From the NCBI GenBank assembly GCA_944391735.1, contig CALXUR010000003.1, forward strand, positions 12,287-76,286: 64,000 nucleotides of DNA. Direction: 5' to 3'. The notes beneath the pieces are model-generated. The model was not told the DNA's origin. It worked only from the letters and a program-made list of their open reading frames with translations, and ran no database searches. This document shows positions 2,182 to 55,410 of this stretch, piece after piece; position 1 is the first letter of the stretch, and each line of letters begins with the position of its first letter. The position numbers were made by a program, and so were the translations under genes. This stretch comes from an uncultured Alphaproteobacteria bacterium (lineage in GTDB: Bacteria; Pseudomonadota; Alphaproteobacteria; CAAHEQ01; UBA3637).

Positions 2182-2182
2182 A

Positions 2183-2869: not shown

Positions 2870-2877
2870 ATTCGGGC

Positions 2878-2906
2878 TTGACACCGGACGAAAAATAGAG
2901 TATAAT
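2878..2906 (+). promoter_or_regulatory. Sigma70-type promoter of the rpsM-rpsK-rpoA-rplQ (alpha) operon
   Basis: TTGACA (2878-2883), 17 nt spacer, TATAAT (2901-2906). A perfect consensus, about 78 nt upstream of rpsM. Confidence 0.6.
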
Positions 2907-2984
2907 TCCCGCTCGTTCAGGTGTCCTTAAAAAGGTCTGAGCTTGGTTTTGTATTATTTTTTATAGGTTTAATGGAGAAGTACC

Positions 2985-3362
2985 TTGGCACGTATTGCTG
3001 GTGTAAACATTCCGACGTCTAAATTGGTTGTCATTGGGTTGACATACATTTACGGCATTGGTCGGAAAAAAGCTGAAGAAATCTGCACACAGGTCGGCAT
3101 TCCCGCGAATAAGCGCGTGAGCGATCTGACAGATGAAGAAACGTTGAAAATTCGTGAGTTGATCGATAATTCCTATCATGTGGAAGGGGATTTGCGTCGC
3201 GAAGTTTCGTTAAATATCAAACGTCTGATGGACTTGGGTTGTTATCGTGGGTTGCGTCACCGGAAAGGGTTGCCGGTTCGCGGTCAACGGACACACACGA
3301 ATGCCCGCACACGCAAGGGTAAAGCCATTGCGATTGCCGGTAAGAAGAAAGTCACTAAGTAA
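2985..3362 (+). CDS. rpsM: 30S ribosomal protein S13
   Basis: [10 protein letters not shown]... is a canonical S13 N-terminus. Confidence 0.95.
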
Positions 3363-3382
3363 GGCGGAAAGGATAGATTTCG

Positions 3383-3775
3383 ATGGCTGAAACAAAAACA
3401 GTGCGGACAAAAAACCGCGACAGAAAGAATATCGCAGTGGGCGTTGCTCATGTGAATTCGACTTTTAACAACACAATGATCACAATTACGGACACACAGG
3501 GGAATGCGATTTCCTGGTCTTCGTCGGGATTAAAAGGGTTCAAAGGATCTCGTAAATCGACGCCGTATGCGGCTCAAGTTGCGGCCGATGATGCGGCGCG
3601 TAAAGCGATGGAGCATGGGTTGAAGACAATCGATGTTTATGTAACGGGTCCGGGCACCGGCCGTGAATCGGCTCTGCGTGCTTTCCAAGCTGCCGGATTA
3701 GTGATTACGTCCATTAAGGACATTACTTCTCTGCCGCACAACGGATGCCGTGCGCGGAAACGTCGGAGAGTTTAG
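3383..3775 (+). CDS. rpsK: 30S ribosomal protein S11
   Basis: S11 family sequence. It is followed directly by rpoA, with no rpsD. Confidence 0.95.
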
Positions 3776-5494: not shown

Positions 5495-5524
5495 GGAAGC
5501 GTTTCGGCGCTTCCTTTTTATTTT
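5495..5524 (+). terminator. Rho-independent terminator after rplQ
   Basis: GGAAGCG-tttcgg-CGCTTCC hairpin followed by a T-run. Confidence 0.6.
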
Positions 5525-5536
5525 GAGGGAAAAGAC

Positions 5537-5692
5537 ATGACAGCAAAAACGAAAGAAAGAATAGTTCAAATGTTTGCCGCCCAAAAGATTTACAGAACGG
5601 AGGTGGATCGCCGAAAGATAAAACGTTCGGCTGATAAGCGAAATAAATTAATGACCAGACAACGGAAGAATCAGGAAAAACAATACGCTTAA
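5537..5692 (+). CDS. Hypothetical small, highly basic protein (about 51 aa)
   Basis: ATG preceded by GAGGGA. The gene lies between two intrinsic terminators. Product MTAKTKERIVQMFAAQKIYRTEVDRRKIKRSADKRNKLMTRQRKNQEKQYA. No family recognised. Confidence 0.3.
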   Translation: MTAKTKERIVQMFAAQKIYRTEVDRRKIKRSADKRNKLMTRQRKNQEKQYA

Positions 5693-5719
5693 AAGAGGCT
5701 GTTAAGCCTCTTTTTTTTA
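5692..5719 (+). terminator. Rho-independent terminator
   Basis: AAGAGGCT-gtta-AGCCTCTT hairpin followed by T8. Confidence 0.6.
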
Positions 5720-5870
5720 CCATAAACTGTAACGAAAAAAGGGTCAATAAAAAGTTATAAAAACGTATAACATGGGCGCAGATATGAAGTCAAGAAAAAA
5801 ATGAAATAACAAAAAGACTTCCTGTATGTTGAGGAAAATGGGGGATAAGATGAAAAAATGTAAAAATTAA

Positions 5871-20433: not shown

Positions 20434-21552
20434 ATGGATAAAAAACAAACCGCTAATCTAAGAAATCAATCTTGTCAAAATGAGTCGGGAAAATCGATGG
20501 TTGAAATGTTGGGTGTCTTGGCTTTGATGGGATTATTGGCTATTCTGGGGGCTAAAGGATATAATATGGCGATGGAACGTGTGGCGTCGACCCGGATTTT
20601 GAATGAAGTCAATCGACGCTCCGTTGTTTACGCACAACAGATGATGAGTCATACCGAACTGTCGGAATTGGATTCGTCAGAGATGCCCGAAACAATAGAA
20701 GGCGGATATGCTTTTTCAGCCCGGCCTTTGGATAACGCTTTTTTTACGATTACCGTTGAAAATGTGGAAAAAGAAGTCTGTGCTCACATGGTTGATTTGA
20801 ATATGAAAACGGCGTTACGGCTACGTGTTGACGGGCAGATTTCCACAGGGGACAGTCAGATTTGCCAAAAAAGCAACGGCACGTTGGAATATACATTTTC
20901 TAAATTGTTAACTCCTTGTGAGGATTGTTTGGATAATATAACGACTTGTTCTTCAAACGCAGATTGTGAGGCAAATTATGAGTGTAAAAACGGCGTTTGC
21001 TCTTGTGCAATTCCATGTGGTGAGGCGTGTTGTTCAAGCGGTGAGACATGTGTTAATGGAGCTTGCTCGGTTGTTCAGGGCTGCACCAGTGATTTAGATT
21101 GTGACAACGGTATTTGTTTTTCGGATGGCGTGTGTGGGTGCCGGAGTTGGCGTGATTGCAATGAGGAATCCTATTGCGTCTGGCAAGATAGAACGCATTA
21201 TACTTGCTCCGGACGAGCCGACATTGCCCCAGGCAGTGATACGGGACCCTTCGGATGGATGGCGTCCAGCGTTACCATGCGTCAGGAAACGGCGGCGGAT
21301 TTTTGTGATAAGTATGGCAAATCTGATCCAACGGCTGTTGAGGTTGGTATATCGAATTTAGATGCAAATGGATCAATGACACCACCCGATTTTTTGGCGT
21401 GGCTTGGTCAAGGGAATTATTGGATTCAAGGAACAGATCCTTGGGGAAAAGGGTCGCGAGCTCTTATCTACATACATCCAAATAAAAAAATGAATTGGGG
21501 TAGTTTTAATTTGGGATATTTTTATAATAAAAATTATGCCCTCTGTCATTGA
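20434..21552 (+). CDS. Prepilin-type pilin-like protein with a Cys-rich C-terminal domain, paralog of 5871..7406
   Basis: ...QNESG|KSMVEMLGVLALMGLLAILGAKGY prepilin-like N-terminus. The C-terminal half is dense in Cys (CEDCLDNITTCSSNADCEANYECKNGVCSC...). Confidence 0.6.
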   Translation: MDKKQTANLRNQSCQNESGKSMVEMLGVLALMGLLAILGAKGYNMAMERVASTRILNEVNRRSVVYAQQMMSHTELSELDSSEMPETIEGGYAFSARPLDNAFFTITVENVEKEVCAHMVDLNMKTALRLRVDGQISTGDSQICQKSNGTLEYTFSKLLTPCEDCLDNITTCSSNADCEANYECKNGVCSCAIPCGEACCSSGETCVNGACSVVQGCTSDLDCDNGICFSDGVCGCRSWRDCNEESYCVWQDRTHYTCSGRADIAPGSDTGPFGWMASSVTMRQETAADFCDKYGKSDPTAVEVGISNLDANGSMTPPDFLAWLGQGNYWIQGTDPWGKGSRALIYIHPNKKMNWGSFNLGYFYNKNYALCH

Positions 21553-28106: not shown

Positions 28107-28637
28107 TTATACCTCGGCTTCCTCGGCAAGACGCGCCTCTTTTTTGCGACGCTTTTCCAAATGTTTCAGCAATAATTTACGTTTTAAGGGTGACAAATAA
28201 TCGATAAACAACTTACCGTCCAAGTGGTCGATTTCGTGTTGAAAAGCGACAGCCAAAAGGCCTTCGGCCGTGCGGGTTTGGGGATGTCCGTTTTCATCCA
28301 GATACCGGACGGTGACGCGCGCATGCCGTTCCACATCGGCATATTCGCGCGGAACGGACAGGCACCCTTCGTTATGACAGATCATTTCATCGGATCGATC
28401 AATAATTTCGGGATTAACCAATTTTATGGGATCCGGTTGTTCTCCGCCGCAATCAACAACAACCATGCGGCGCAATTCACCGACCTGGTTACCGGCCAGC
28501 CCGACGCCATGGGTGGCATACATAGTTTCCAACATATCCGCCAACAGTTGTTTAACGGCGGGTGTAACGGCCTGAACCGGCTCTGCTTTTTGCCGCAAAA
28601 CCGGGTGCGGCACTTCCAAGACTTGTAATTTTGACAT
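28107..28637 (-). CDS. def: Peptide deformylase
   Basis: GLAGNQVG, EGCLS and HEIDHL motifs. Start at MSKLQVLEVP. Confidence 0.9.
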   Translation of the reverse strand: MSKLQVLEVPHPVLRQKAEPVQAVTPAVKQLLADMLETMYATHGVGLAGNQVGELRRMVVVDCGGEQPDPIKLVNPEIIDRSDEMICHNEGCLSVPREYADVERHARVTVRYLDENGHPQTRTAEGLLAVAFQHEIDHLDGKLFIDYLSPLKRKLLLKHLEKRRKKEARLAEEAEV

Positions 28638-28702
28638 TTTTTCTTTCCTTTTCCTGTCACCTATTATATAATAAAAAGAGTTCATTTGCAAAGGAGAAAT
28701 TC

Positions 28703-29254
28703 ATGATACGTTTATTTGCGGGGTTGAGCCTGCCGGAAGAAATCAAAAAACAGTTGACAGACCTGCAAAGAAACCTGCCCGGTGCTTTGTGGCGTCCGGC
28801 CGAAAAAATGCATTTGACATTGCGGTTTATCGGGAACCTGGAAGAGCCTTTGGCGGAAGATGTTTTAAAAGAACTGCGCTATATTCGTTTTCCGGCTTTT
28901 CATTATTCTTTAAAAGGAGTCGGGTATTTTGCGCGCGGTGATGTGCCGCACCATATTTGGGTCGGTGTTGATGAAGACAAAGCGATACGCGAATTGCAAG
29001 AAAAAGTGGATCATGCCGTTAAGAAAGCGGGGGCGGGTCAGGAAGATAAATTTAAATTTGTGCCGCATGTGACATTAGGGAAACTGATCGGTTCGGATAT
29101 GGTGGATGTTTTTAAATTTATTCAGGAAAATAACTTGTTTCATTCGGATGTTTTTGAAGCTTCTTCATTCACGTTGTATCAGAGCATTGCGCGTGAGAAT
29201 GGCGAAGGAAAATATTATAAGGAAATTGAAGAGTATCCTTTGATGTTGGTTTAG
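28703..29254 (+). CDS. thpR: RNA 2',3'-cyclic phosphodiesterase / 2'-5' RNA ligase family
   Basis: Two HxT/S motifs (HLTLRF and HVTLGK). RBS AAAGGAG. Confidence 0.8.
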   Translation: MIRLFAGLSLPEEIKKQLTDLQRNLPGALWRPAEKMHLTLRFIGNLEEPLAEDVLKELRYIRFPAFHYSLKGVGYFARGDVPHHIWVGVDEDKAIRELQEKVDHAVKKAGAGQEDKFKFVPHVTLGKLIGSDMVDVFKFIQENNLFHSDVFEASSFTLYQSIARENGEGKYYKEIEEYPLMLV

Positions 29255-29266
29255 GAGGGGTCGCAT

Positions 29267-29410
29267 GCGTCATTTGATAAAGCCTCGTGTTTTACATCCG
29301 GGAGATACTGTCGCAACTATTTCTTTATCCTGGGGCGGGGCCGGATTATATCGAGAGCGTTACGAGCAAGGCAAGAGGCAGTTTGAGGAAGCGTTTGGTT
29401 ATTTTTAGAA
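29267..29410 (+). pseudogene. ldcA: N-terminal remnant (about 47 aa) of an LD-carboxypeptidase (LdcA/MccF family) gene
   Basis: MRHLIKPRVLHPGDTVATISLSWGGAGLYRERYEQGKRQFEEAFGYF then stop. Matches the LdcA N-terminal block (LkpGD.i.vvaPSsg...). The rest of the gene is absent. Confidence 0.45.
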
Positions 29411-29458
29411 CAGAAAACAATTGTTAGTCAGAAAATATATCTTGATCGGATTTCATTT

Positions 29459-30511
29459 TTATCTGCCCCGGGATTGAAGCAGTTTTGCCATAGAAAAGGC
29501 TTTATTATGAATTTGCTGTGTTTCTTTATCTAAAGTGGTATTATCTGTTTTATGAATACCCGTTTTATCCATTAGCTTTTGTTCCATATATGCTTGGATA
29601 CCATATGCATGTGTTTCCGAAGGCAACATCACATATAAATCCTTATAATTTTCAGATGTTTTATTGTCCAAGAGGTCTTCATAAACAGCGATATTTTCAA
29701 TATTACAGTCAAAAATACGGTTAATTAGAGGGTCGTCAAATCTTTTTTGGTGTTGTCGATGGTGTGTCCCCTCATGAAATAAAACGGATACCGCAAAAAA
29801 GTTATCACAATTTTGTAGCCGTTCTTCATTAAAATAAATTTTCCCCTTTTGATAATAGGCAGCATAGATGTGTGTATCTTCAGGCAGTCTATTTTTATGT
29901 TGTTGTGCTTTTTCTTGTTCCGGTGTGAAAAATTCAATTTCGGGTGCGGTTCCATAGATGTGTTTAAAAATTTCAGCGGCTTGTTTTAGTACTTCTTTTT
30001 TTTCCGGTAAAGATGTTTTATTCCAATTTTTTAATTTATTTGTTATTTGAGGTTGGGCGGCAATAAGGGTGGCATAGCTGTCGGCCAACTTTTTTTCATG
30101 ATCCCAAAAACGATTTGGAAAAGTCATTGTAAATAAACATATCCTTAAATTCTTATCATTTTTACGACAAATCCGTATTAAATCATCTAGTGTTTGTCGC
30201 CTTGGGAACAGCGCTTCTAAATAGTCCAATTTCTGTTCTAAAGATAATGTGGTGATTTGAGTCGGAGTTAGCGTTGAAAATTGTTCGACTTTTTGTAATT
30301 TAAGCTGATGATGGAGTCGATAGGTTTGAGCGTAGGTTTGAATTAGTATATTAAAGTCTTGTTGGGATATATTTTCCAACCGATTGTTTTGAATAATTTG
30401 ATTAATGCGTTGTGTATCTTTATCGGAAAAGGGAGTAAAACAGACACTCCCATCAGTATTCATCGTGATTTTACATCGATCCATTAAATCTTCAAATTCA
30501 TTAATATTCAT
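29459..30511 (-). CDS. Hypothetical protein with an HExxH (HEGTHH) zinc-metalloprotease-like motif. Low GC, probably horizontally acquired; candidate secreted effector.
   Basis: 350 aa with no signal peptide. Markedly more AT-rich than its neighbours. LFHEGTHHRQH motif. Lies between the ldcA remnant and the 3' end of a tRNA. Confidence 0.45.
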   Translation of the reverse strand: MNINEFEDLMDRCKITMNTDGSVCFTPFSDKDTQRINQIIQNNRLENISQQDFNILIQTYAQTYRLHHQLKLQKVEQFSTLTPTQITTLSLEQKLDYLEALFPRRQTLDDLIRICRKNDKNLRICLFTMTFPNRFWDHEKKLADSYATLIAAQPQITNKLKNWNKTSLPEKKEVLKQAAEIFKHIYGTAPEIEFFTPEQEKAQQHKNRLPEDTHIYAAYYQKGKIYFNEERLQNCDNFFAVSVLFHEGTHHRQHQKRFDDPLINRIFDCNIENIAVYEDLLDNKTSENYKDLYVMLPSETHAYGIQAYMEQKLMDKTGIHKTDNTTLDKETQQIHNKAFSMAKLLQSRGR

Positions 30512-30669
30512 ATTATTCCTTCCACCAGATGTTCCGAATATAATTATACAGTAAGATGATGGAAAAGTAAACTATATTGATGAGCCGAACGGGAGAGAGG
30601 GCGAATTGATGTTGGAATTGGAAAGTCCGGAGGGCGGATATATAAAAACCCCGTATCAAACGAGGTGTT

Positions 30670-30746
30670 TGGTGGGCCCGGTAGGACTTGAACCCACGAC
30701 CTATCCGTTATGAGCGGACAGCTCTAACCAACTGAGCTACAGGCCC
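30670..30746 (-). tRNA. tRNA with a CAU anticodon: elongator tRNA-Met or lysidine-modified tRNA-Ile2
   Basis: Minus-strand sequence GGGCCTGTAGCTCAGTTGGTTAGAGCTGTCCGCTCATAACGGATAGGTCGTGGGTTCAAGTCCTACCGGGCCCACCA folds as a cloverleaf with CCA encoded. Anticodon loop CUCAUAA. It is not the initiator type. The C4-G69 and C5-G68 pairs are compatible with TilS substrates. Confidence 0.9.
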
Positions 30747-30757
30747 CCATCTCCGGA

Positions 30758-30786
30758 ATCATACAAAAAAAACAGGAAAAAATCAA
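30758..30786 (-). promoter_or_regulatory. Candidate promoter of the CAU tRNA
   Basis: On the minus strand: TTGATT, 17 nt spacer, TATGAT, then 10 nt to the tRNA 5' end. Confidence 0.4.
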
Positions 30787-30923
30787 GTCTTTTTTTTATG
30801 GGTGGTATCTTTCTCATAACAGAATATGTTTTAAGCGGAATAATACGAAAAAAGTGTATTTTTGGGCTTCTAAAAATGGAAAAAGTGTGATATAATCACC
30901 CTTGTCATTAACAAAAGGAGAAT

Positions 30924-31454
30924 ATGAATATGTCTAAAGACTACACATTTAATCCTGGTGATTTCGTTGTTTATCCGGCGCATGGTGTCGGGCAGGTGAC
31001 AGAGATTCAGCAAACCGCCGTTGCCGGTCAAAATTTAGATTTGATTGCCATTAATTTCACAAAAGATAAAATGATGTTGCGTATTCCGTTGGCAAGCGCG
31101 CAAAAAAGCGGATTGCGTCAAATAGCGACACCGGCGATGATGGACGTTGCGGTTCATACATTGCAGGGTAAGGCGAAAGCGAAGCGGGCTCAATGGAGCA
31201 AACGGTCTCAGGAGTATGCGACGAAAATCAACTCCGGTGATCCGGTTGCGGTCGCGGAGGTGTTGCGTGACTTATATAAAAATCCGGCCGTTGCGGAGCA
31301 GACATACAGTGAGCGACAAATTTATGAGCAAGCGTTGGGACGCTTTGTTTCCGAATATGCGATTGTCAATGACATGAATGAGGCCGAGGCTGCCACACGT
31401 TTAGAATCTATCCTGAAAAGCAAATCCGCTTCTGTGAAAGCGGAGGCGAAGTAA
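30924..31454 (+). CDS. carD: CarD/CdnL-family RNA polymerase-binding transcription factor
   Basis: FNPGDFVVYPAHGVGQVTEIQ... is a CarD_CdnL_TRCF N-domain. An extended -10 box (TGaTATAAT, 30888-30896) lies upstream. Confidence 0.8.
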   Translation: MNMSKDYTFNPGDFVVYPAHGVGQVTEIQQTAVAGQNLDLIAINFTKDKMMLRIPLASAQKSGLRQIATPAMMDVAVHTLQGKAKAKRAQWSKRSQEYATKINSGDPVAVAEVLRDLYKNPAVAEQTYSERQIYEQALGRFVSEYAIVNDMNEAEAATRLESILKSKSASVKAEAK

Positions 31455-31460
31455 AGCTTT

Positions 31461-32483
31461 TTGAGGGATAATCAAGGGGGAATTGTGCTGAAAAAAAATC
31501 CGACGCTTTATGCAAGGAATGATACATGTGCCGCTTCAAGGTGGAGCGGCCTTTGTCGTTTTTTAAACAAATACATGCTGATTATCATTGCATTGTTTTT
31601 AGGGTTGTATTTATATGTTTATCCGGACGTTTTGGATAAGATATGGAACAGTCTTCGCGATTATTCGGGGGATTCGGCGTCTAAAATCACATTTGAATCT
31701 TTATTTCAGGCGGTTCTTTTCTTTTTGTTTGCGGCCTATCTGATCCGAAAATTGAAATCATTTTTGGATCGTCGGGTGTTATCTCATGTTGTTATGGATA
31801 TCGGTTCCCGGCACGCCGTTATTTCTCTAATCGGGTATATCGGTTGGTTGTTTATCGGAGTCATGACATTATCAATTGTCGGTATCAACTTAAGAAACCT
31901 GGCCATTGTGTTCGGTGCGTTATCCGTCGGTATTGGTTTCGGCCTTCAGAATGTGGTCAATAATTTTGTATCCGGCTTGGTCATCTTGTTTGAGCGACCG
32001 ATTAAAGAAGGGGATTGGGTTGTGATTAACGGGCAGGAGGGAATTGTCAAGAACATACGCATTCGTTCAACGGAACTGGAAACGTTCGATCGGGCAAACG
32101 TTTTAATTCCAAATGCCGATATTTTATCAAGTAATGTGTTGAATTGGACGCATAACGACATGTATGGTCGTGTTGTTGTAGCGGTCGGGGTATCATATAA
32201 CTCTGATTTGAATCACGTTCGAGACGTTTTATTGCGATGTGCGTCACGGGAGAAGGGGCTTTTAACGAATCCGGAACCTTACGTTTGGATTACATCTTTC
32301 GGAGCCAACAGTATTCATTTTGAGTTGCGTGGTATTACCGACAATGTTATGAACAAAGGAAGTATTCAAAGCCGGTTGATGTTTTCGGTTTTTGAAGCGT
32401 TTGAATCAGAGGGGATTGAAATTCCGCTACCCCAACGAATTGTCTGTGTTAAGCAGGGAGCCGATGATGAAAAACACGATTAA
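31461..32483 (+). CDS. Mechanosensitive ion channel, MscS family. The start codon is uncertain.
   Basis: TM helices followed by the FGLQNVVNNFVSGLVILFERPIKEGDWVVINGQEGIVKNI MscS core. Confidence 0.8.
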   Translation: MRDNQGGIVLKKNPTLYARNDTCAASRWSGLCRFLNKYMLIIIALFLGLYLYVYPDVLDKIWNSLRDYSGDSASKITFESLFQAVLFFLFAAYLIRKLKSFLDRRVLSHVVMDIGSRHAVISLIGYIGWLFIGVMTLSIVGINLRNLAIVFGALSVGIGFGLQNVVNNFVSGLVILFERPIKEGDWVVINGQEGIVKNIRIRSTELETFDRANVLIPNADILSSNVLNWTHNDMYGRVVVAVGVSYNSDLNHVRDVLLRCASREKGLLTNPEPYVWITSFGANSIHFELRGITDNVMNKGSIQSRLMFSVFEAFESEGIEIPLPQRIVCVKQGADDEKHD

Positions 32484-33460: not shown

Positions 33461-33536
<76 letters not shown>

Positions 33537-33686: not shown

Positions 33687-33705
33687 GGATAAAAAGGGAT
33701 AAGTC

Positions 33706-34158
33706 ATGAAATATATTCTGATTTTAACATTACTGTTGATGAGTGTATCCGCTGGTGCGGTGACAGTTGAGGATATGTCAGAAGCACGAAAGCAAGCAGA
33801 GTTTGAGGCACGTGCGATAGATAAGATTTGTTGGAACGAGGCATTTAAAGATAAGCCGGATACGACAAGAGCTATGTGGGCGGCAGCGGTGCGGAACACA
33901 GACTGCTTATATAAGGAGATAGAAAAACAGGTAAAGCTGGCTTTTTTACCACAGGATCATGAAAAGATGATGGTGTTAATTCATGCAGCCGGTAAAAATA
34001 TAGCGGATATTTACTTTGAGATGCATACCAGTAACCGGTATTGTTACGGGCATTGCGGAACTATGAATAACATCACGCATACGGTGAATGAAATGGAGTT
34101 TTTAATTGGCGTGTTAACAGATTTAATTTTGATGAACAGGATAAAAGACAGTGTATGA
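33706..34158 (+). CDS. Small secreted Cys-containing protein (150 aa), copy 1. Candidate periplasmic immunity protein or lysozyme inhibitor.
   Basis: Signal peptide MKYILILTLLLMSVSAGA. Conserved Cys including CYGHCGTM. Paralogous to 34635..35087. Convergent with a GH108 toxin remnant. Confidence 0.5.
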   Translation: MKYILILTLLLMSVSAGAVTVEDMSEARKQAEFEARAIDKICWNEAFKDKPDTTRAMWAAAVRNTDCLYKEIEKQVKLAFLPQDHEKMMVLIHAAGKNIADIYFEMHTSNRYCYGHCGTMNNITHTVNEMEFLIGVLTDLILMNRIKDSV

Positions 34159-34207
34159 TTATAATAAATATATTTTCGGGAGGGGTTAAACCTCCCGAAT
34201 GAACTAT

Positions 34208-34530
34208 TTACTATTTAATTAAAGATTTTTCAAATCGTTTTTTCCAACCATATCCGAATTTAATTTGATTGGATATGGGTTGTTTTTTTATGTCAGAAAA
34301 ACGTTGTCGGACAATATAATTGTTGACGTCTTTCATTTGTTGAAGAGTTAAATTGTTCAGGGCATTAATAGTTTGAGATCCCATGACACCGTCTTCATCC
34401 ACTTGAAAAGAAGTGAATTGATTAATACCTTGTTGCGCCCATTGGATCGGCTCTGTCAGCGACAACGGCAGGTATTGATTCGCATTAACCGTTAAGGCGG
34501 GTTGCGGAATGGTTGGTTTTGATAGATAAA
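34208..34530 (-). pseudogene. 3' remnant of a GH108/PG_binding_3 toxin gene. Track ORF 34211..34465 covers the C-terminal 84 aa.
   Basis: About 88% DNA identity to the 3' end of 35098..36360. Upstream remnant sequence 34466-34530 (ggtattgattcgcattaaccgttaaggcgggttgcggaatggt) matches an internal part of the full gene near 35943-36010. This indicates an internal deletion. Confidence 0.55.
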
Positions 34531-34587
34531 GCTAAAAAGAAATCGTCTTTATAAACCGGTATATTGAAAATAAAAGATACAAATTAT

Positions 34588-34616
34588 TTGACTTTGATGT
34601 TGAACGAAAGTATAAC
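34588..34616 (+). promoter_or_regulatory. Promoter of island gene 34635, a duplicate of 33658-33686
   Basis: TTGACT, 17 nt spacer, TATAAC. Confidence 0.5.
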
Positions 34617-34634
34617 GGATAAAAAAGGCGAGTC

Positions 34635-35087
34635 ATGAAATATATTCTGATTTTAACATTACTGTTGATGAGTGTATCCGTTGATGCAGCGGAAAAGGAA
34701 GAAGTGTGTGACACGTTGGAATGTGCGAAGGCTCAAGCGCATCACATTGGAAAAACGTGTTGGGATGAGGCGTATAAGGATGATCCGTATTCGACAGCGG
34801 AGATGCGCCGAGCCGATTTTAATGCAAATGATTGCATGTATAAAGCGGTGGAGGAGCAAGTCAGGCAAGCTTTTGAACCGACCGAGCAAGAGCAGGTTTT
34901 AGAATGGATTATGACAGGGTGGCGTGGGGTCAGTCAAACATACTGGATGATTTTTAACAATAATAAATATTGTTACGGTCGTTGTGGAACAATGCAACAT
35001 TTACGAAATACTCCTTTTGAAGCTCAATTTTTAGAGCAGGTTTTGGCTTGGTTAATTCATGCAAATGCAAAGAAAGGGAGTATTTAA
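34635..35087 (+). CDS. Small secreted Cys-containing protein (150 aa), copy 2
   Basis: Same signal peptide as copy 1. CYGRCGTM. Convergent with the intact GH108 toxin gene. Confidence 0.5.
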   Translation: MKYILILTLLLMSVSVDAAEKEEVCDTLECAKAQAHHIGKTCWDEAYKDDPYSTAEMRRADFNANDCMYKAVEEQVRQAFEPTEQEQVLEWIMTGWRGVSQTYWMIFNNNKYCYGRCGTMQHLRNTPFEAQFLEQVLAWLIHANAKKGSI

Positions 35088-35097
35088 CTCCCTTCCT

Positions 35098-36360
35098 TTA
35101 TTTGATAAAGTGACGTTCGCTTCTGGTTGTCAGACCTTTTCGGCGGGTTCCGTATCCGGCTGGGTTTGCGTCAGCGTATTGGTTTATTTGTCCGGAACGT
35201 TGTCGGACAATATAATTGTTGACTTCTTTCATTTGTTGAAGGGTCAAATTATTAAGGGCATTAATGGTTTGTGATCCCATGATGCCGTCTTCATCTACTT
35301 GAAAAGAAGTCAATTGATTAATACCTTGTTGCACCCATTGAATCGGCTCTATCGGAGAATGGTTTGCCAAAAGGTCAAATAAGGTCTTGGCTAACTTTTC
35401 ATTTTTAATTTCTTCAATGCGGTAGGCATCGTAATAATCCATTTTATAAATGGTTGTTGCCTGATCCCTTGTTAAATCCTTAACGGTAGCGGGATATGTT
35501 CTTCCCAAAGTCGGATGGGCCGCTTTAAAACGATTTAATGAACCTTGAATAACACCCATATTGGTCGGTTGATCTATTCTAGTCGGTCTATCTTCATAAC
35601 CGCCCTCTTCCTGATAGACAGATGACAACAGGCGATCAAAACGGGTGGTGGAACCGTAGCCCAAAAGTTCATTCATCTTATCGACCGTCAGGTCATCGGG
35701 GCGCAAAATGCCGGTTCTATCCAAACCGTTATCTCGTTGAAAAGCCGAAATGCCGTCAAACAGTTGTTGGTCGGGATAGGGGGTTATTCCCTCTGACTCC
35801 GGCAGGTAATAGCCCAAGTCGTATAAGGCCTCTTTTGTCGAGATAACGTCTGTGGGAGAGGCGAAAGAGGGGCTGACGGATTGTGTGATAAAAAAGCCCT
35901 GCGCGTCGGTATTGTTATCTGTTAAAAAGTTCGGTTTTATCGGTGGTAACGACGGGTATTGATTTGCATCAACCGTTACGGACGGTTGCGAAATGGTCGG
36001 CTTTTGATAATAATTCGGCGCGGGCAGAGAGTTTAAATCCCGAAAGGCTCGATTTAACAATTTTTCGTTTTCTCGGGCATTTTTTTCGGCACGTTTGCTT
36101 TGGCTTGTTTCTTCCCTATTTTTTTGCTGTGCTTCTTTTTCATCATGGTCTTGTCCGCAGATGCGGTTATAGGGTTTGACATGCTTACCCTTTCGCATAT
36201 GGCCGGGAACGTGAATGAGTTTTTGGCAATGTCCGGATGTGTCGTGTCCTTTGGAACTGAGTTGTCGCTTCGGGATAATTTGTGCCTGTCCCGTGAAAGA
36301 GCTCAGGTTTTGTAATATTTTGGCGATATTGATAAATGCGGTAAGAGATTTTTGATCCAT
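35098..36360 (-). CDS. Polymorphic toxin-like protein: conserved His/Cys-rich N-terminal domain, S/T/P/Q-rich linker, GH108 lysozyme-like domain and PG_binding_3
   Basis: N-terminal GHDTSGHCQKLIHVPGHMRKGKHVKPYNRICGQDHDEKEAQQKN is shared with 38438..38773, 40284..41024 and 36841..37245. The C-terminal half has the EEGGYEDR...DQPTNMGVIQ catalytic block of glycoside hydrolase family 108 and a DEDGIMGSQTINALN PG-binding segment. Start taken as Met18 of the track ORF (RBS AAAGGAAAAGC). Confidence 0.6.
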   Translation of the reverse strand: MDQKSLTAFINIAKILQNLSSFTGQAQIIPKRQLSSKGHDTSGHCQKLIHVPGHMRKGKHVKPYNRICGQDHDEKEAQQKNREETSQSKRAEKNARENEKLLNRAFRDLNSLPAPNYYQKPTISQPSVTVDANQYPSLPPIKPNFLTDNNTDAQGFFITQSVSPSFASPTDVISTKEALYDLGYYLPESEGITPYPDQQLFDGISAFQRDNGLDRTGILRPDDLTVDKMNELLGYGSTTRFDRLLSSVYQEEGGYEDRPTRIDQPTNMGVIQGSLNRFKAAHPTLGRTYPATVKDLTRDQATTIYKMDYYDAYRIEEIKNEKLAKTLFDLLANHSPIEPIQWVQQGINQLTSFQVDEDGIMGSQTINALNNLTLQQMKEVNNYIVRQRSGQINQYADANPAGYGTRRKGLTTRSERHFIK

Positions 36361-36495
36361 GCTTTTCCTTTCAATAAAAAAAGCCCGCCGCAAGAGATTC
36401 CGGACAGGCATAAAAAAATCGGGATATACTTGTCCCGATTAACTAAAAAAAGTATAGCATAAATTAAATGAAAAGTCAAGGAATATTTTCCTATT
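36361..36495. repeat. Conserved 5' leader/promoter element of the toxin genes, copy R1. Other copies: 37261-37388, 38774-38918, 41025-41165.
   Basis: AATAAAAAAGCC(C/T)G(C/T)CG..AGATTCCGGACAGGCATAAAAAAATCGGGATAC recurs immediately upstream of every toxin start codon. R1 and R4 also share AAAAGTCAAGGAATATTTTCCTAT. Confidence 0.6.
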
Positions 36496-36556
36496 TTTGA
36501 TTTGTAAATGACTCCTTTTATATTCGTTGGGAAGAACAACGGGATTAAGAAGAGGG

Positions 36557-36796
36557 CTATTTCGGGTTTACGGGATAGAAACGGCATATTTGTTTTTCTA
36601 TATCCCAAACACCTCGGCCATAGCAAGTGTCTTCATTAACAACGCATTCAGTTCCCCAATCACAGTGCGCAAATATAAATCCCTTGGGACAAATACCACC
36701 CGAGAGACAATCATCCTCCCGTAAATCTATATAAGTCATAAGAGCGACTGTCACTATGGTAAAAACTGTCAAACACATAAAAAAGAAAAACTTCAT
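36557..36796 (-). CDS. Small secreted Cys-rich protein (79 aa, 8 Cys). Candidate immunity protein downstream of the decayed toxin 36841..37245.
   Basis: Signal peptide MKFFFFMCLTVFTIVTVAL. Same strand as the toxin remnant and directly 3' of it. Confidence 0.4.
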   Translation of the reverse strand: MKFFFFMCLTVFTIVTVALMTYIDLREDDCLSGGICPKGFIFAHCDWGTECVVNEDTCYGRGVWDIEKQICRFYPVNPK

Positions 36797-36840
36797 GTTA
36801 AAATGATATCAAGAATTTTTTTTGAAAGCAAGAGTGAAGT

Positions 36841-37245
36841 CTAATATTTCAAAGGTAAGCCTGATGGTCTGAAAATGCCACAGCTTTCACTTAATGTTTT
36901 TCCTTTATTGGCTCCCCGCAATCCGGAAATATTTGCTTTCATGTCAGATAAACTTTCATTAGGACCATATTTAAAAACATCTTTACTTTCTTTTAACAGA
37001 GATAACAGAAGGCCTACTAGGTTACCGTAGACACCCCGTGAACCGGCTTCATAGTTTGCTTTACAGTGAAAGTATTTATCTCCGCCGATAAAATTAGTTT
37101 TATTCATATCATTAAAATTTCGGATGAAATCTTTGAGCGGTGCAAATAGTCCGGTCGTTGTTTTTTCCGCTTGATTTTTTTATTGAGCTTCTTTTTCGTC
37201 GGGTGCTGGCACACCGATTGCATTTCCGATGGGTTCTGTTTCCAT
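36841..37245 (-). pseudogene. Decayed toxin paralog: the N-terminal domain carries an internal in-frame deletion and a CAA-to-TAA nonsense codon (37180-37182). The C-terminal small domain is of unknown function.
   Basis: METEPIGNAIGVPAPDE joins directly to KEAQ(*)KNQAEK, with the central roughly 55 codons missing. The same frame continues into track ORF 36841..37107 (FIGGDKYFHCKANYEAGSRG...). Confidence 0.5.
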
Positions 37246-37478
37246 GATCTTTTTCCTTTCAATAAAAAAGCCCGCCGCAAGAGATTCCGGACAGGCATAA
37301 AAAAATCGGGATACACTTTTATTTTAAAAAACTTGTTTTTTACTTTTGAAATTGATAGAATTGTATAAAGGTTTAAAGAGGATATCTAATGAAATATGTA
37401 TTTGGAATTATTTTGGGATTGTTTTTGGTTTCTTGTCAAACACAAGAACCGGTTCAATTTAAAAATCCGATTTTTTAT
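37195..37478. repeat. Duplicated module of about 285 bp: toxin N-terminus, leader, divergent intergenic region and lipoprotein N-terminus. Second copy at 38725-39008.
   Basis: Near-identical stretches from CGTCG(G/A)GTG..CACCGATTGCATTTCCGATGGGTTCTGTTTCCATGATCTTTTTCC through ...CAATTTAAAAATCCGATTTT. Confidence 0.6.
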
Positions 37479-37772
37479 GAAACACTTTATCCTATTTCCA
37501 AGACGGTTCGGGAGACGCGATTGACACCGACGAAGATATATGTGAATGCATTTATTTCGGAAAAAGAGTGTCGATTGCTAAAGAATACCGAGACCGTTTT
37601 GGAGTTTTCCTGTGAATACGACCATCCGTTCAGCGGGCATTTTTCGGATGTATTTTATCGGTATGTTATTGAAGGGGAGGAATCAAAATATACCAATTGT
37701 TTGATTGTTAGGTTGGAAATGCCCGGTGGAACAGCCTGGTTTTGTATTCACCGAGAAAAACCACAGGATTAA
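37389..37772 (+). CDS. Lipoprotein (127 aa), island-associated. Candidate immunity protein.
   Basis: MKYVFGIILGLFLVSCQTQEPVQFKNPIF lipobox. The N-terminal 30 aa are identical to 38919..39389. Convergent with the lysozyme-like toxin domain gene. Confidence 0.55.
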   Translation: MKYVFGIILGLFLVSCQTQEPVQFKNPIFYETLYPISKTVRETRLTPTKIYVNAFISEKECRLLKNTETVLEFSCEYDHPFSGHFSDVFYRYVIEGEESKYTNCLIVRLEMPGGTAWFCIHREKPQD

Positions 37773-37829
37773 GAATGTGATCGTTGCATATCGACTATTT
37801 GACTACTCGGCTGAAGATATATAGTGCAA

Positions 37830-38773
37830 CTATTTGTTTCTATATTTACAAGGAGAATAAAACCATCCATTGATTAATGGAATTTCCCGTAAAGTATTTC
37901 TGGCCCAATCATTGCGGGTTTTTCCGACCTGATATCTATTTACCTCGTTAATCATTTGAAAAACATTTTTTTTGTTAACGCCCTCAAAGAAAAAATGCCA
38001 TTTTTCAGAATTAAAATTGTGCCCCATATTATATTGCATGTCTAATAAAACCATTTGTAGCGTTCTGGGATATGTTTCAAATGCCGGAAATTTTGATTCT
38101 AATTCAGCTAAGTCATTTCCCAAATGTTCCATTGTTTTATCAATAATTGTGTGTTCGGATAGAGTTAGTTCTTGGGAATGATTTGTTACACGGAAGTCTT
38201 CTGAAGTATAATTTTTTCCAAATATTTTCTGTTTTTGAAAATCCAAGAGTCGTTTATATTCGCCTAGTTTTTGCTCGGTTGTAGCCTCTTTTCCTTGATA
38301 CATCCAGGGGAGTGATATAAAGGTTTTTTGATTCGGAATATATAACCCGCTGGCGGCTGTTATCTTTCCCAATGTATCCAAATAGGCATAATTGATTGAT
38401 CCTTCATGTTTTTTTAGATATGGCCAGTATGCTTGAATTAATTCATCATATTTTCGTTGTTTTTTTTAGATACAGTTTCTTTTTGAGAAAGTGTTTCTTT
38501 GTTAACTTTTTCCGCTTGGTTTTCTTGTTGAGCTTCTTTTTCGTCATGGTCACGGCCACAGGTGCGGTTATAGGCGTTGACGGGTTTGCCTTCGCGGCTA
38601 TGAGCGGGAACATGTATCATTTTTTGACAATGCCCCGATGTGTCGTGTCCGTTTTGAGAATTATCGCTGTTTCCGAACAGAAAAGCGAATAGATTTTGTC
38701 GGTTATTATTGACTTGGTTGTTTTCGTCGAGTGTCGGTACACCGATTGCATTTCCGATGGGTTCTGTTTCCAT
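37830..38773 (-). pseudogene. Toxin paralog split by a frameshift at a T8/A8 homopolymer: N-terminal conserved domain (38438..38773) and T4-lysozyme-like C-terminal domain (37830..38381)
   Basis: The N-domain ORF stops 20 codons after the A8 run. The downstream ORF frame is open from immediately after the run. Inserting one A fuses them. The C-terminal domain has LLDMQYNMG...NRYQVGKTRNDWARNTL, resembling the phage/T4 lysozyme (GH24) C-terminal lobe. Confidence 0.55.
38460..38467. repeat. T8 homopolymer (A8 on the coding strand) at the frameshift site
   Basis: gttg-TTTTTTTT-agat. A +1 slippage restores a roughly 310-aa open reading frame. Confidence 0.6.
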
Positions 38774-38918
38774 GATCTTTTTCCCTTCAATAAAAAAAAG
38801 CCTGCCGCAAGAGATTCCGGACAGGCATAAAAAAATCGGGATACACTTTTATTTTAAAAAACTTGTTTTTTACTTTTGAAATTGATAGAATTGTATAAAG
38901 GTTTAAAGAGGATATCTA

Positions 38919-39389
38919 ATGAAATATGTATTTGGAATTATTTTGGGATTGTTTTTGGTTTCTTGTCAAACACAAGAACCGGTTCAATTTAAAAATCCGA
39001 TTTTTAATAAAAAACTAGAAGCTATTTCCAAAATTCTTAATGATGTAAAAATAACTCCGACAGAAATTATAGATCTAAAGGATCCGGAGGTATTACCGGC
39101 AACGTGTGAGTTATTGTCCGATGAAGGATATCGTATTATTATGAAGTGTGTGCAGCCCTATCGAACAATACCGGTGCAAACGGTGTATTACCGTTTTACA
39201 AATATGGGAAAATATGAACCATTCTATTCGTCAGAAAAAAATCTGTGTGAAATTCATCAGGAGCAATGTGATGATATGGATTTTCAAAATTTTTACTCTT
39301 GGGGTGTTTTTGTCGTTCGATTAAACGATGGGGAGGATTGTGGTCCTCAGATGCCTGAAGACCAACTCCCCGAATGGTTGATCAGGTAA
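38919..39389 (+). CDS. Lipoprotein (156 aa), island-associated. Candidate immunity protein.
   Basis: Lipobox LVSC. The C-terminal roughly 90 aa (ATCELLSDEGYRIIMKCVQPYRTIPVQTVYYRFTNMGKYEPFYSSEKNLCEIHQEQCDDMDFQNFYSWGVFVVRLNDGEDCGPQ) are identical to 39445..39912. Confidence 0.55.
   Translation: MKYVFGIILGLFLVSCQTQEPVQFKNPIFNKKLEAISKILNDVKITPTEIIDLKDPEVLPATCELLSDEGYRIIMKCVQPYRTIPVQTVYYRFTNMGKYEPFYSSEKNLCEIHQEQCDDMDFQNFYSWGVFVVRLNDGEDCGPQMPEDQLPEWLIR
39081..39350. repeat. 270-bp direct repeat at near-100% identity. Second copy at 39610-39879.
   Basis: Identical from GATCCGGAGGTATTACCGGCAACGTGTGAG through GAGGATTGTGGTCCTCAG. It encodes the shared C-terminal part of the two lipoproteins. Confidence 0.6.
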
Positions 39390-39444
39390 ATGTTATCTTC
39401 TATTTTATGATTGAGGTAATTATATAAAGTTTTAAAGAGAGTAT

Positions 39445-39912
39445 TTGATGAAGCATGTGTTCGGGGTTATTTTGAGTGTGTTCTTGGTTGCTTGTCAAAC
39501 GCAAGAAGCGGTTCAATTTAAAAACCCGGTTTTTAATAGAAAGTTGGCATCAAATGTGAGTATGGATTACGATATTGTGATAACGCCGAGAATCATGGTC
39601 ACTTTAAATGATCCGGAGGTATTACCGGCAACGTGTGAGTTATTGTCCGATGAAGGATATCGTATTATTATGAAGTGTGTGCAGCCCTATCGAACAATAC
39701 CGGTGCAAACGGTGTATTACCGTTTTACAAATATGGGAAAATATGAACCATTCTATTCGTCAGAAAAAAATCTGTGTGAAATTCATCAGGAGCAATGTGA
39801 TGATATGGATTTTCAAAATTTTTACTCTTGGGGTGTTTTTGTCGTTCGATTAAACGATGGGGAGGATTGTGGTCCTCAGGCACCTAAGGACCAACTTCCC
39901 GAATGGTTTTGA
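39445..39912 (+). CDS. Lipoprotein (155 aa), tandem paralog of 38919..39389 with a divergent N-terminal third
   Basis: MMKHVFGVILSVFLVACQTQEAVQFKNPVF lipobox. The C-terminus is identical to the upstream paralog. Confidence 0.55.
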   Translation: MMKHVFGVILSVFLVACQTQEAVQFKNPVFNRKLASNVSMDYDIVITPRIMVTLNDPEVLPATCELLSDEGYRIIMKCVQPYRTIPVQTVYYRFTNMGKYEPFYSSEKNLCEIHQEQCDDMDFQNFYSWGVFVVRLNDGEDCGPQAPKDQLPEWF

Positions 39913-39936
39913 TTATACTATTTTTATTTTTTTGTT

Positions 39937-40251
39937 TTAAAGAGTAAAAGCTAAATATATATTCAACCCGATAAAATACAAAAGCGGATAACTTAATATT
40001 ATAACGGATTGCCACGGTTGTTGGTGATGACGCAGTCGTGCATACCATAAACAAAGGATAATCAGTATTGCTTCGGTTAAGTTGACTACAGTATAGTTAA
40101 GGGGATGATGATACATCCAACCTAAATTATCCGCTTGCCAGGGTATTTCCGGATTGGCAATATCTTGGAAACACCCGATAAAGAGAAAGCCTGTCAGAAA
40201 GATATTAAAAGCGGCAAGTAAAAAAAATAGAATGCGTTGAATATATTTCAT
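39937..40251 (-). CDS. Small polytopic membrane protein (104 aa). Candidate immunity protein directly downstream of the Tlde1-like toxin.
   Basis: Three predicted TM segments. Same strand as 40284..41024, 32 nt downstream. Confidence 0.45.
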   Translation of the reverse strand: MKYIQRILFFLLAAFNIFLTGFLFIGCFQDIANPEIPWQADNLGWMYHHPLNYTVVNLTEAILIILCLWYARLRHHQQPWQSVIILSYPLLYFIGLNIYLAFTL

Positions 40252-40283
40252 AATATTAATACTATCATCTTTTAAAAAAATGT

Positions 40284-41024
40284 CTAGTATTTAACTTGAA
40301 CAATAACATCATATCCATTATTTTGAAACCATTTTGCAAAATCAGCCATTGCCTTTGTTAGATCAATACATCCGGCAGAACCTGGCGTTAAGCCTCCATG
40401 AATAGAAAAATTATTTCTTCCATATAGATTAGTATCATTCGCTGGTGTTAACCAAATGCGTTGTTCTCCCCATGCAGCTGTTCCACCTCTCCACTGTCCG
40501 CCACCTATTGAAGACTTAAATTTTTGCCATGCTCCCAAATTTTCCCACTTTTGAAAATCGCTGATTTTTGCAACATAATTGTCTTCGGGAAGTGGACCAT
40601 AATTTTTTAAATCCTGATAATTTGGATGTTGAAAGCCCGGTCGTCCGGATACACCTTTCCATTCCTTAATAATTTCTCCATTTTCGTGCAGGGTAAGACT
40701 TTTACCATTAAAAGATAAATACTGCCCATTTTTTAGGTTTAATGGAGTATTCCATTGTGTATATGGATTATTTTTTTGTTGAGCCTCTTTTTCGTCGTGG
40801 TTACGGCCGCAGATGCGTTCATAGGCGTTGACGGGTTTGCCTTCGCGGCTATGAGCGGGAACATGTATCATTTTTTGACAATGCCCCGATGTGTCGTGTC
40901 CGTTTTGAGAATTGTCGCTGTTTCCGAACAGAAAAGCGAATAGATTTTGTTGACTGTTATTTCTCGGATTGTTTTCGTCGGGTGCTGGCACACCGATTGC
41001 ATTTCCGATGGATTGTGTTTCCAT
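40284..41024 (-). CDS. Polymorphic toxin-like protein: conserved His/Cys-rich N-terminal domain and Tlde1/DUF2778-like (YkuD L,D-transpeptidase-fold) C-terminal domain
   Basis: N-terminus METQSIGNAIGVPAPDENN...NGHDTSGHCQKMIHVPAHSREGKPVNAYERICGRNHDEKEAQQKN. C-terminus has ...GRPGFQHPNYQDLKNYGPLPEDNYV and FSIHGGLTPGSAGCIDL (His...SxGC catalytic motif of the YkuD/Tlde1 family). Confidence 0.6.
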   Translation of the reverse strand: METQSIGNAIGVPAPDENNPRNNSQQNLFAFLFGNSDNSQNGHDTSGHCQKMIHVPAHSREGKPVNAYERICGRNHDEKEAQQKNNPYTQWNTPLNLKNGQYLSFNGKSLTLHENGEIIKEWKGVSGRPGFQHPNYQDLKNYGPLPEDNYVAKISDFQKWENLGAWQKFKSSIGGGQWRGGTAAWGEQRIWLTPANDTNLYGRNNFSIHGGLTPGSAGCIDLTKAMADFAKWFQNNGYDVIVQVKY

Positions 41025-41242
41025 GGTCTTTTTCCTTTCAATAAAAAAGCCTGTCGGATCAGATTCCGAACAGGCATTAAAAAAATCGGGATACATTTAT
41101 CCCGATTAACTGAAAGATATCATATCATAAATCAGATTAAAAGTCAAGGAATATTTTCCTATAAATAGAAATATTTTCTTTATTGACTTTTGTCGGGAGG
41201 CGTGAAATACTGAACGAAAGTTGACGATGAAAGGAGAAGGTT

Positions 41243-54747: not shown

Positions 54748-55410
54748 ATGACGGATATAATGCATAAAAGTATTTCACAAGATGAATCCGGAAGAACGTT
54801 GACGGAACTTTTGGTTGTTTTGGTCCTTATGGGATTTTTATCTTTAGCCTTTATTCGCGGATATGTGTGGGCTATGGATATGTATCACGCCAGTGAAACA
54901 ATGAATGAAATGGAAGTTCGGGCGACGACGTTGGCGACTTTGTATGGTCGGGAAGGTTGGCCCGCTGTGGGAACGGATGTTACGCTTGAAGAATTCGGCA
55001 ATGTAACGAATCATGGTTATCCGATTAAGATGACAACCTATAATGACGGTATGTTTGTGTTTGCCGTTTCGGATGTGCCGGTTAAAGTTTGCGAAAAGAT
55101 TTTGCGAGATTGGCGCATGGTTGAATGGTTGATGGTGGATGAAAACAGTGATGATCCGATCGGACCTGAACCCGGGGGAATCGGTAGTGAAGATAACTAC
55201 TATGATTTTTCAAATCCCAATCACGACCTGTGTTCCAGGTTTGCAAAGGCCGATGAAGAGAATAATGGTCAGCCGACCGTAAAAATGTATTTCTGGTTTC
55301 ATAGGGAATTAGACCTGTGTCAGGGCGATAACTGCGGCACGACGCCGGGTGGAGACGAACCCGATCAAGAGGATCAAGGGGGCACCGAAGGCGACGGAGG
55401 AACCGTATAA
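54748..55410 (+). CDS. Prepilin-type pilin-like protein (220 aa), third paralog
   Basis: ...QDESG|RTLTELLVVLVLMGFLSLAFIRGY prepilin-like N-terminus. Acidic Gly-rich C-terminus. Confidence 0.55.
   Translation: MTDIMHKSISQDESGRTLTELLVVLVLMGFLSLAFIRGYVWAMDMYHASETMNEMEVRATTLATLYGREGWPAVGTDVTLEEFGNVTNHGYPIKMTTYNDGMFVFAVSDVPVKVCEKILRDWRMVEWLMVDENSDDPIGPEPGGIGSEDNYYDFSNPNHDLCSRFAKADEENNGQPTVKMYFWFHRELDLCQGDNCGTTPGGDEPDQEDQGGTEGDGGTV

Follow-up and report, generated by a model that had tools for sequence, protein, structure and literature searches.

A GC-poor gene for a probable zincin-type metallopeptidase at a synteny breakpoint beside a tRNA gene in an uncultured gut Alphaproteobacterium

Organization of the locus

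A gene for a 350-residue protein displaying a HExxH motif was examined in the genome of an uncultured Alphaproteobacteria bacterium (GCA_944391735.1), where it is flanked by a truncated S66 peptidase gene and a tRNA gene. The stretch of DNA analyzed here (the window) comprises 64,000 nucleotides (nt), equivalent to positions 12,287-76,286 of contig CALXUR010000003.1, and all coordinates below refer to it unless a relative's locus is named. The gene, referred to as X350, occupies 29459-30511 on the reverse strand. Loci of relatives are given L-numbers, with L005, L086, and L087 being other samples of the window's species and L006 and L007 belonging to the two closest other species. The loci with CarD genes closest to that of the window all stem from metagenome-assembled genomes (MAGs) of human, ruminant (gut, rumen, and faecal), and other animal gut samples. 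The features surrounding X350, with the evidence for each in parentheses, are as follows.

28700-29254, + strand: ThpR/LigT-like 2',3'-cyclic phosphodiesterase gene (Pfam LigT_PEase, E = 5.7e-22)
29265-29408, + strand: S66 peptidase stump (MccF/LdcA family), 47 codons plus stop (phmmer against PDB, E = 3e-10)
29409-29458, no strand: AT-rich 50-nt spacer between the stop codons of the S66 stump and X350, whose ends converge (sequence and composition profile)
29459-30511, - strand: X350, an intact open reading frame (ORF) of 350 codons (ORF call)
29615-29617, - strand: codon of E299, the candidate third zinc ligand (invariance across the family)
29762-29776, - strand: HExxH codons H246-E247-G248-T249-H250 (read from the sequence)
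30543-30571, - strand: promoter-like site of X350 (consensus scan)
30577-30669, - strand: native downstream flank of the tRNA gene with a terminator-like hairpin at 30648-30666 (alignment with L006 and L007)
30670-30746, - strand: tRNA-Met(CAT) (ARAGORN; Rfam tRNA, 67.8 bits)

X350 is framed by two conserved blocks. ThpR is the final gene of the left block, TruA-Fmt-Def-ThpR, which is kept in L092-L096 with differing genes downstream. The ThpR C-terminus (PLMLV followed by the stop) is preserved in relatives, and its stop codon forms the left edge of a species-specific segment. The right block is opened by tRNA-Met(CAT) and runs through CarD and MscS to tRNA-Ala; the tRNA-CarD order is also found in L006 and L007. 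Approximately 95 nt past the tRNA, including the terminator-like hairpin, can still be aligned among the window, L006, and L007. Because 30577-30669 is conserved in other species, the right edge of the species-specific segment is placed near 30576, and the foreign segment therefore begins around 29255 or 29400 and ends around 30576 (1.2-1.4 kb). S66 homology stops, and GC content drops, within the 29409-29458 spacer.

X350 is transcribed from the same strand as the tRNA and lies downstream of it. The gap of 158 nt between the two (30512-30669), reported in a first-pass annotation of this DNA, is correct, except that the start of X350 and not its end faces the tRNA 3' end. An Rfam scan of 28500-31500 retrieved nothing besides the tRNA. 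By reading of its acceptor stem, the tRNA does not appear to be an initiator, because G1-C72, C4-G69, and C5-G68 are present; it might be a lysidine-modified tRNA-Ile2.

An intact gene of foreign composition

Among the 58 ORFs in the window that reach 150 residues, X350 ranks lowest both in GC content (0.337) and in GC content at third codon positions (GC3, 0.274). The other 57 average 0.454 and 0.465, respectively, giving z scores of -3.1 for GC and -3.3 for GC3, and the ORFs ranking next all belong to an accessory island at 34-41 kb, apart from this locus. The initial description of an intact, low-GC HExxH gene opposite an S66 fragment is confirmed, and the composition of X350 is foreign to this genome.

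X350 is also a real, maintained gene, intact and conserved. Its predicted promoter is sigma-70-like (TTTACT and TATAAT separated by a 17-nt spacer, 10 of 12 consensus positions), and a predicted ribosome-binding site, GGAAGGAA, directly precedes the ATG. The arrangement with X350 is common to L005, L086, and L087 at 99.3-99.7% nucleotide identity, on par with CarD and MscS. At this degree of conservation between strains of one species, X350 is a fixed gene and not a strain-variable island. Codon changes comprise three synonymous and no nonsynonymous relative to L087, and five synonymous and two nonsynonymous relative to L005.

The S66 remnant

The first-pass annotation had also recognized roughly 47 codons of a truncated ldcA at 29267-29410. 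The stump is real, although its coordinates are shifted by 2 nt, to 29265-29408, and it is MccF-like: residues 4-45 align to residues 5-48 of the MccF-like S66 chains 5jyb and 5f9m, which are 343-346 residues long, in an alignment that includes the SxSWGG motif. Its best matches are thus of the MccF type and not canonical LdcA, with 47 of 343-346 residues left. No continuation of the S66 gene occurs in any frame of the two spacers or elsewhere in the window, so the ORF is considered a dead stump or pseudogene. The same 47-codon stump with the same FGYF-stop end is present in L005, L086, and L087.

Across 29255-29378, a patch that takes in the ThpR-S66 spacer and the greater part of the stump, 25 positions mismatch those of L086 and L087, a divergence of about 20%, and the flanking sequences (ThpR and X350) are 98-100% identical to those loci. 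The patch is read as a recombination tract from a distant allele, since decay alone cannot produce this pattern of divergence; such an origin would imply that ThpR and S66 genes are neighbors in other lineages. In the ThpR relatives L092-L095 (76-82% identity), TruA-Fmt-Def-ThpR is kept and followed by other genes, with no S66 gene among them. A homolog search with the 47-residue stump returned only three short fragments, and hence no intact orthologous S66 neighbor was obtained. Insertion into ldcA is accordingly a proposed event only, given that S66 is absent from the conserved ThpR neighborhood in the sampled relatives. L088, in which a 74-residue S66 fragment lies beside a gene for a 369-residue protein, was considered as a parallel locus and rejected, as that protein is unrelated to X350.

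The tRNA 3' flank as a site of recombination

The X350 segment lies at a synteny breakpoint. Beyond the tRNA, the genes of L006 and L007 are unrelated to those of the window: L006 (CarD 93% identical) carries Ham1-like, kinase-like, NUDIX, and GNAT genes, and L007 (CarD 88% identical) carries GNAT, RNase R-like, and GroEL-like genes, these assignments being made by reading ORF translations, with no library scan. Direct traces of recombination were detected at the same tRNA in two relatives. L007 harbors an 81-nt direct repeat (95% identical, positions 5497-5577 and 5664-5744 of that locus, 167 nt apart) composed of 16 nt from the 3' end of this tRNA-Met plus 65 nt of downstream flank, which looks like an att-type scar left by integration or excision. 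In L005, an extra 207 nt (positions 3070-3276 of that locus) absent from the window is found exactly at the tRNA-Met 3' end with CCACCA on both sides. Judging from the L007 repeat and the L005 indel, this tRNA 3' end is recombinationally active in relatives.

Several hallmarks of a genomic island are thus displayed by the X350 segment, namely location at a tRNA 3' end, atypical composition, and occupation of the same site by other genes in L006 and L007. A duplicated tRNA 3' segment, anticipated near 29411-29460, was looked for and not found; because neither such a duplication nor an integrase occurs in the window, no recognizable integrative island is present. Horizontal acquisition at the tRNA, as first suggested, consequently stands as regards foreign composition and a species-specific segment at a breakpoint, and falls as regards a recognizable mobile element. 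A 17-nt repeat (29240 and 30606) was considered as an att site and rejected as a chance match because it encodes the conserved ThpR C-terminus. X350 homologs in general do not reside beside tRNAs. The locus nevertheless offers a small and clean example of a tRNA flank as a recombination hot spot with cargo that varies by species.

A narrowly distributed protein family

X350 has 54 full-length homologs at 40-60% identity, and the few that are named by source are labeled Alphaproteobacteria MAGs. An exhaustive profile search of 1.84 billion representatives retrieved just 64 proteins at E <= 0.001. As far as sampled, the family is confined to uncultured gut Alphaproteobacteria. Across 37 members at 18-60% identity, the invariant residues are E139, H246, E247, H250, Q253, and E299. 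The motif stretch of X350 reads HEGTHHRQH, of which H251 and H254 vary among members, so that Q253 and E299 are the sole invariant residues after the HExxH motif. The family has diverged faster (40-60% identity) than p176 (75-92%), a gene that adjoins X350 homologs in other lineages and is described below.

An AlphaFold2 model built with the family alignment is of high confidence (predicted local distance difference test score 91.8, predicted template modeling score 0.88). The predicted structure begins with a small N-terminal alpha/beta unit (residues 1-45) and a helical scaffold (50-160) that holds the invariant E139. The catalytic domain that follows (approximately 165-320) is predicted to comprise a helix (168-186), three short strands (191-195, 218-221, and 224-228), two short helices (197-206 and 229-234), the HExxH helix (239-255), and the helix bearing E299 (297-317), after which a basic C-terminal helix (329-349) completes the chain. 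The N-terminal portion of about 160 residues matched no solved (PDB) or viral (BFVD) structure.

As originally noted, X350 lacks a signal peptide, and no membrane segment is apparent: hydropathy (Kyte-Doolittle, 19 residues) peaks at 0.35, and the N-terminus is acidic. Family members possess an acidic body (isoelectric point of about 5.5-6) and a conserved basic tail: across 30 members, net charge averages +3.5 in the final 25 residues.

Assignment to the zincins

No match to X350 exceeded threshold in Pfam, PHROGs, NCBIfam, or PADLOC. Its own best Pfam match is DUF6647 (residues 164-254), at a subthreshold E = 0.16; DUF6647 has been argued to belong to clan MA (PMC11467057). A Pfam scan of the 37 members likewise produced only subthreshold matches. 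The four families with the most member matches, SprT-like (seven members, best E = 2.4e-4), eCIS_core/DUF4157 (five), PhageMetallopep (three), and DUF6782 (three), are all zincins. YgjP-like (two members), DUF6647 (two), and M91 (one) followed, and most other families were matched by a single member. PADLOC assigns the X350 of the window to no defense family, and one homolog reaches only 0.016 to PDC-M38A.

Profile and fold comparisons were faint as well. A profile of the catalytic part alone matched selecase MJ1213 best in the PDB (E = 0.085), in an alignment that spans the strands and HExxH. When the full-length alignment served as the profile, the PDB returned only a designed helical protein, which was taken as a chance match. 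Foldseek with the whole of X350 gave no match at E <= 0.001 in PDB or BFVD. Jannalysin (4jix) appears at rank 17 of the 50 entries in the PDB list, with a probability of 0.51 and a target TM-score (template modeling score) of 0.47, and is the sole entry there that we take to be a zincin metallopeptidase. The weak BFVD fold matches include SprT-like phage and viral proteins. The zincin-fold search called for in the first-pass annotation therefore did yield matches to zincins, all of them weak and none significant.

Zincins display a characteristic order of elements, namely a helix, three strands, the HExxH helix, and a later helix, and the X350 model follows it. In X350, HEGTH at 246-250 falls on a predicted helix, as the zincin fold demands, and the invariant E299 lies on the predicted helix 297-317, 49 residues past H250. 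Taken with the weak matches, the invariant residues and the structural model make X350 very probably a zincin whose minimal core is gluzincin-like, consisting of HExxH plus Glu. It is filed at the superfamily level only, because every formal membership test for a named family failed.

Three groups of known proteins invite comparison. X350 resembles the minigluzincins (selecase MJ1213 and the archaeal projannalysin and proabylysin) in its minimal soluble core and later Glu helix, but is three times larger owing to the N-terminal scaffold of about 160 residues and the C-terminal helix, both matchless. In contrast to the archaeal minigluzincins, it is bacterial and gut-associated, and the sequence and fold matches to them are nonsignificant. 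With the SprT-like proteins Wss1 and Spartan (PF10263), X350 shares the HExxH helix after a small sheet. A third His shortly after HExxH is typical of SprT proteins. The test for this family failed, as no member of the X350 family exceeds the gathering score and no third His is conserved; Q253 and E299 are invariant instead, and DNA-binding or SUMO/ubiquitin-binding modules were not detected. Wss1 and Spartan are themselves described as minigluzincins in PMC4559962. The zincin domains DUF4157/eCIS_core, DUF6647, DUF6782, and Tox-MPTase are, like X350, short HExxH modules devoid of a signal peptide. X350 differs from these toxin domains in being a stand-alone, unfused protein, and no extracellular contractile injection system (eCIS), type VI secretion system (T6SS), or Rhs genes lie alongside it in the contexts examined.

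Homologs in other lineages and the origin of X350

The position of the X350 homolog differs in every lineage examined, in most of them among ordinary genes. Homologs in five lineages (L001, L003, L004, L089, and L090) have GC and GC3 values within about 1 standard deviation of their neighbors. The low GC of X350 is therefore not intrinsic to the family. According to the first-pass annotation, homologs of core-like composition in a housekeeping context would speak against a horizontally acquired effector; such homologs do exist at the family level, in these five lineages, so the objection carries in part. Transfer within the clade is the best reading of homologs that are host-like in composition elsewhere and differently placed. 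The copy in the window was probably imported, with a clade member of lower GC as the simplest source.

In L001, L003, and L004, a gene for a 176-residue protein (p176) is located 11-59 nt downstream of the X350 homolog. The homolog heads each cluster (6001-8391 in L001, 4739-8391 in L003, and 6001-7640 in L004), followed by p176. This gene is absent beside X350 in the window, L089, and L090, and none is found anywhere in the window; a tblastn match at 34169-34459 (E = 0.02) corresponds to a PG_binding_3 fragment instead. The p176 family yielded 441 matches, the best 120 of which are at least 76% identical. By this measure p176 looks like a core gene of the clade, and a role as a mobile partner or immunity gene was rejected in view of the large and highly conserved family. 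The p176 protein had no match in PDB or Pfam.

Other neighbors of the homologs were inspected as well. In L001 and L003, p176 is followed by a gene for a 265-residue protein whose PDB and Pfam matches are insignificant (E = 0.03 or worse). By eye, it displays a His...Asp...Gln-x5-Cys pattern reminiscent of CE-clan cysteine proteases, a resemblance left unconfirmed by a single-sequence AlphaFold2 model (pLDDT 34). Directly upstream of the homolog in L003, a 415-residue protein with its own HESIH motif is encoded, with a weak PADLOC match to PD-T4-6 (3.1e-4). None of the 176-, 265-, and 415-residue neighbors belongs to a Pfam family. L004, a lower-GC relative, encodes a 558-residue ankyrin-repeat protein (1722-3398, - strand) about 2.6 kb upstream of its X350 homolog. 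Ankyrin repeats are frequent in host-interacting bacterial proteins. The distant members L108 and L109 have no informative neighbors. No relatives of X350 were found in 50,697 phage records or 72,556 plasmids (tblastn), or in IMG/VR (pattern scan).

These comparisons bear on the alternative that X350 is an old, vertically inherited gene of the clade that was moved by chromosomal rearrangement, its low GC being intrinsic to a fast-evolving, AT-rich coding sequence. Such a history would accommodate the confinement of the family to the clade, the fixation of X350 and its CarD/MscS-like conservation among conspecific strains, and the lack of mobility genes and att sites, and the junction is in itself a breakpoint of rearrangement. 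We nonetheless regard it as decidedly improbable: the GC3 deficit of 0.19 (z = -3.3) occurs in this host only, with the homologs of five other lineages matching their neighbors, and the X349-p176 pairing seen in three lineages is broken here, with no p176 in the window.

Possible functions and proposed explanation

The absence of a signal peptide invites the proposal that X350 is a secreted effector, exported without a Sec signal by a VirB/D4-type type IV secretion system via its basic tail, or by a T6SS, to cleave a protein of a host or competitor. The acidic body and conserved basic C-terminal tail are compatible with a VirB/D4-type signal; uncultured Alphaproteobacteria account for all annotated members, and gut, rumen, and faecal samples were the source of the CarD relatives. 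The family evolves fast compared with p176, the gene is accessory and scattered around genomes, and the weak Pfam matches include the effector-type zincins eCIS_core/DUF4157 and M91. Furthermore, the same window encodes toxin-like proteins directed at peptidoglycan, one with a Tlde1 domain and one of the GH108 type, along with immunity-like lipoproteins, on which basis the organism would deploy exported toxins. However, neither X350 in the window nor its homologs in seven other contexts have a neighboring gene for a secretion system, chaperone, VgrG/PAAR, or immunity protein, and X350 contains no eukaryote-like domain. Nothing ties the gene to a type III, IV, or VI secretion system, the conserved basic tail being the sole hint. 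The C-terminal segment is a conserved helix that may be structural, and a basic tail is unspecific. In most lineages, moreover, the gene has native composition and ordinary neighbors. Taken together, an effector role appears unlikely. The bolder version, in which X350 would be the first of an undescribed family of host- or competitor-targeting zinc-protease effectors exported through the C-terminal helix and exchanged laterally within the clade, is still harder to credit.

Alternatively, X350 could act inside the cell, either in SprT/Wss1-like removal of protein adducts or in regulation or antirestriction, as a protease resembling ArdC or ImmA/IrrE. In the Pfam scan, SprT-like drew more members than any other family (7 of 37, as above), and SprT-like viral proteins are among the weak BFVD fold matches. 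The L001 homolog adjoins a prophage-like block with pRha, Peptidase_M78, and a helix-turn-helix protein, and the lack of export signals in X350 fits an intracellular location. Against such a role, none of the matches exceeds threshold and the SprT-type third His is missing. Scans detected neither a DNA-binding domain nor the N-terminal domain of ArdC, a gene for a partner repressor is lacking, the phage, plasmid, and IMG/VR sets hold no relatives, and the protein of the window has no PADLOC match. An intracellular function of this kind is accordingly doubtful, to about the same degree as an effector role.

We favor the explanation, at a probability of roughly 65%, that X350 is an accessory zincin-type metallopeptidase that was acquired laterally within the clade and landed at a rearrangement-prone junction. 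The protein would be a soluble, zinc-dependent endopeptidase of about 41 kDa, with a predicted minigluzincin/SprT-like core set in a family-specific helical scaffold. In this core, zinc is predicted to be held by H246 and H250 together with E299 as the third ligand, and E247 to be the catalytic base. The source of the gene would most likely have been a clade member of lower GC, and its arrival would predate the divergence of the strains sampled from this species. The insertion point would lie where the ThpR block meets the 3' flank of tRNA-Met(CAT), and that event, or one linked to it, may have taken all but 47 codons of the resident S66 (MccF-like) gene. From the findings above we infer zinc binding and proteolysis, which way and from which donor the transfer went, and a link between insertion and truncation.

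Several observations weigh against this explanation. No curated or solved zincin matches X350 significantly by Pfam, PDB profile, or Foldseek. The nearest homolog outside the species is 60% identical, and no donor was identified. The clade restriction of the family and the X349-p176 pair in three lineages point to a largely vertical history elsewhere, and the low GC of X350 could partly come from its Lys/Asn/Ile-rich protein. With regard to mobility, a search for att sites revealed no repeat of the tRNA longer than 11 nt anywhere in the window and none near 29250-29460, and the 1.4-kb segment contains the S66 stump and X350 only, without an integrase or transposase.

If the prediction is right, X350 represents a new and very narrowly distributed family of zinc peptidases in poorly known, uncultured gut Alphaproteobacteria. 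The novelty would reside in this narrow family, as the superfamily is very well known and the variable locus is of an ordinary kind. For most purposes, X350 still counts as an ordinary "hypothetical HExxH protein".

An accessory island and other features of the window

A second low-GC accessory island is located at 33700-41100, downstream of tRNA-Ala (33461-33536). The following genes were assigned within it.

34211-34465, - strand: PG_binding_3 fragment (library scan)
35098-36411, - strand: protein with GH108 and PG_binding_1 domains (library scan)
36841-37107, - strand: 88-residue ORF with a serum amyloid A match (Pfam, 5.3e-14)
40284-41096, - strand: Tlde1-domain protein (7.7e-9)

The island also holds paralogous ORFs at 33706-34158, 34635-35087, 37389-37772, 38919-39389, and 39445-39912, whose hydrophobic N-termini are read as signal or lipoprotein peptides. 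These paralogs look like immunity genes, and the island resembles an antibacterial effector/immunity array. The 88-residue ORF (GC 0.363) scores 52.9 bits against a gathering threshold of 30.8; serum amyloid A is an animal-type acute-phase domain, found here inside a toxin-like island of a gut bacterium.

Elsewhere in the window, two ORFs on the + strand have prepilin-like N-termini by eye and may be type IV pilin or pseudopilin genes. For the ORF at 20434-21552, which has no Pfam match, the assignment draws on its N-terminal sequence alone, and the ORF at 54748-55410 shows a subthreshold match to Pfam N_methyl (0.0059).

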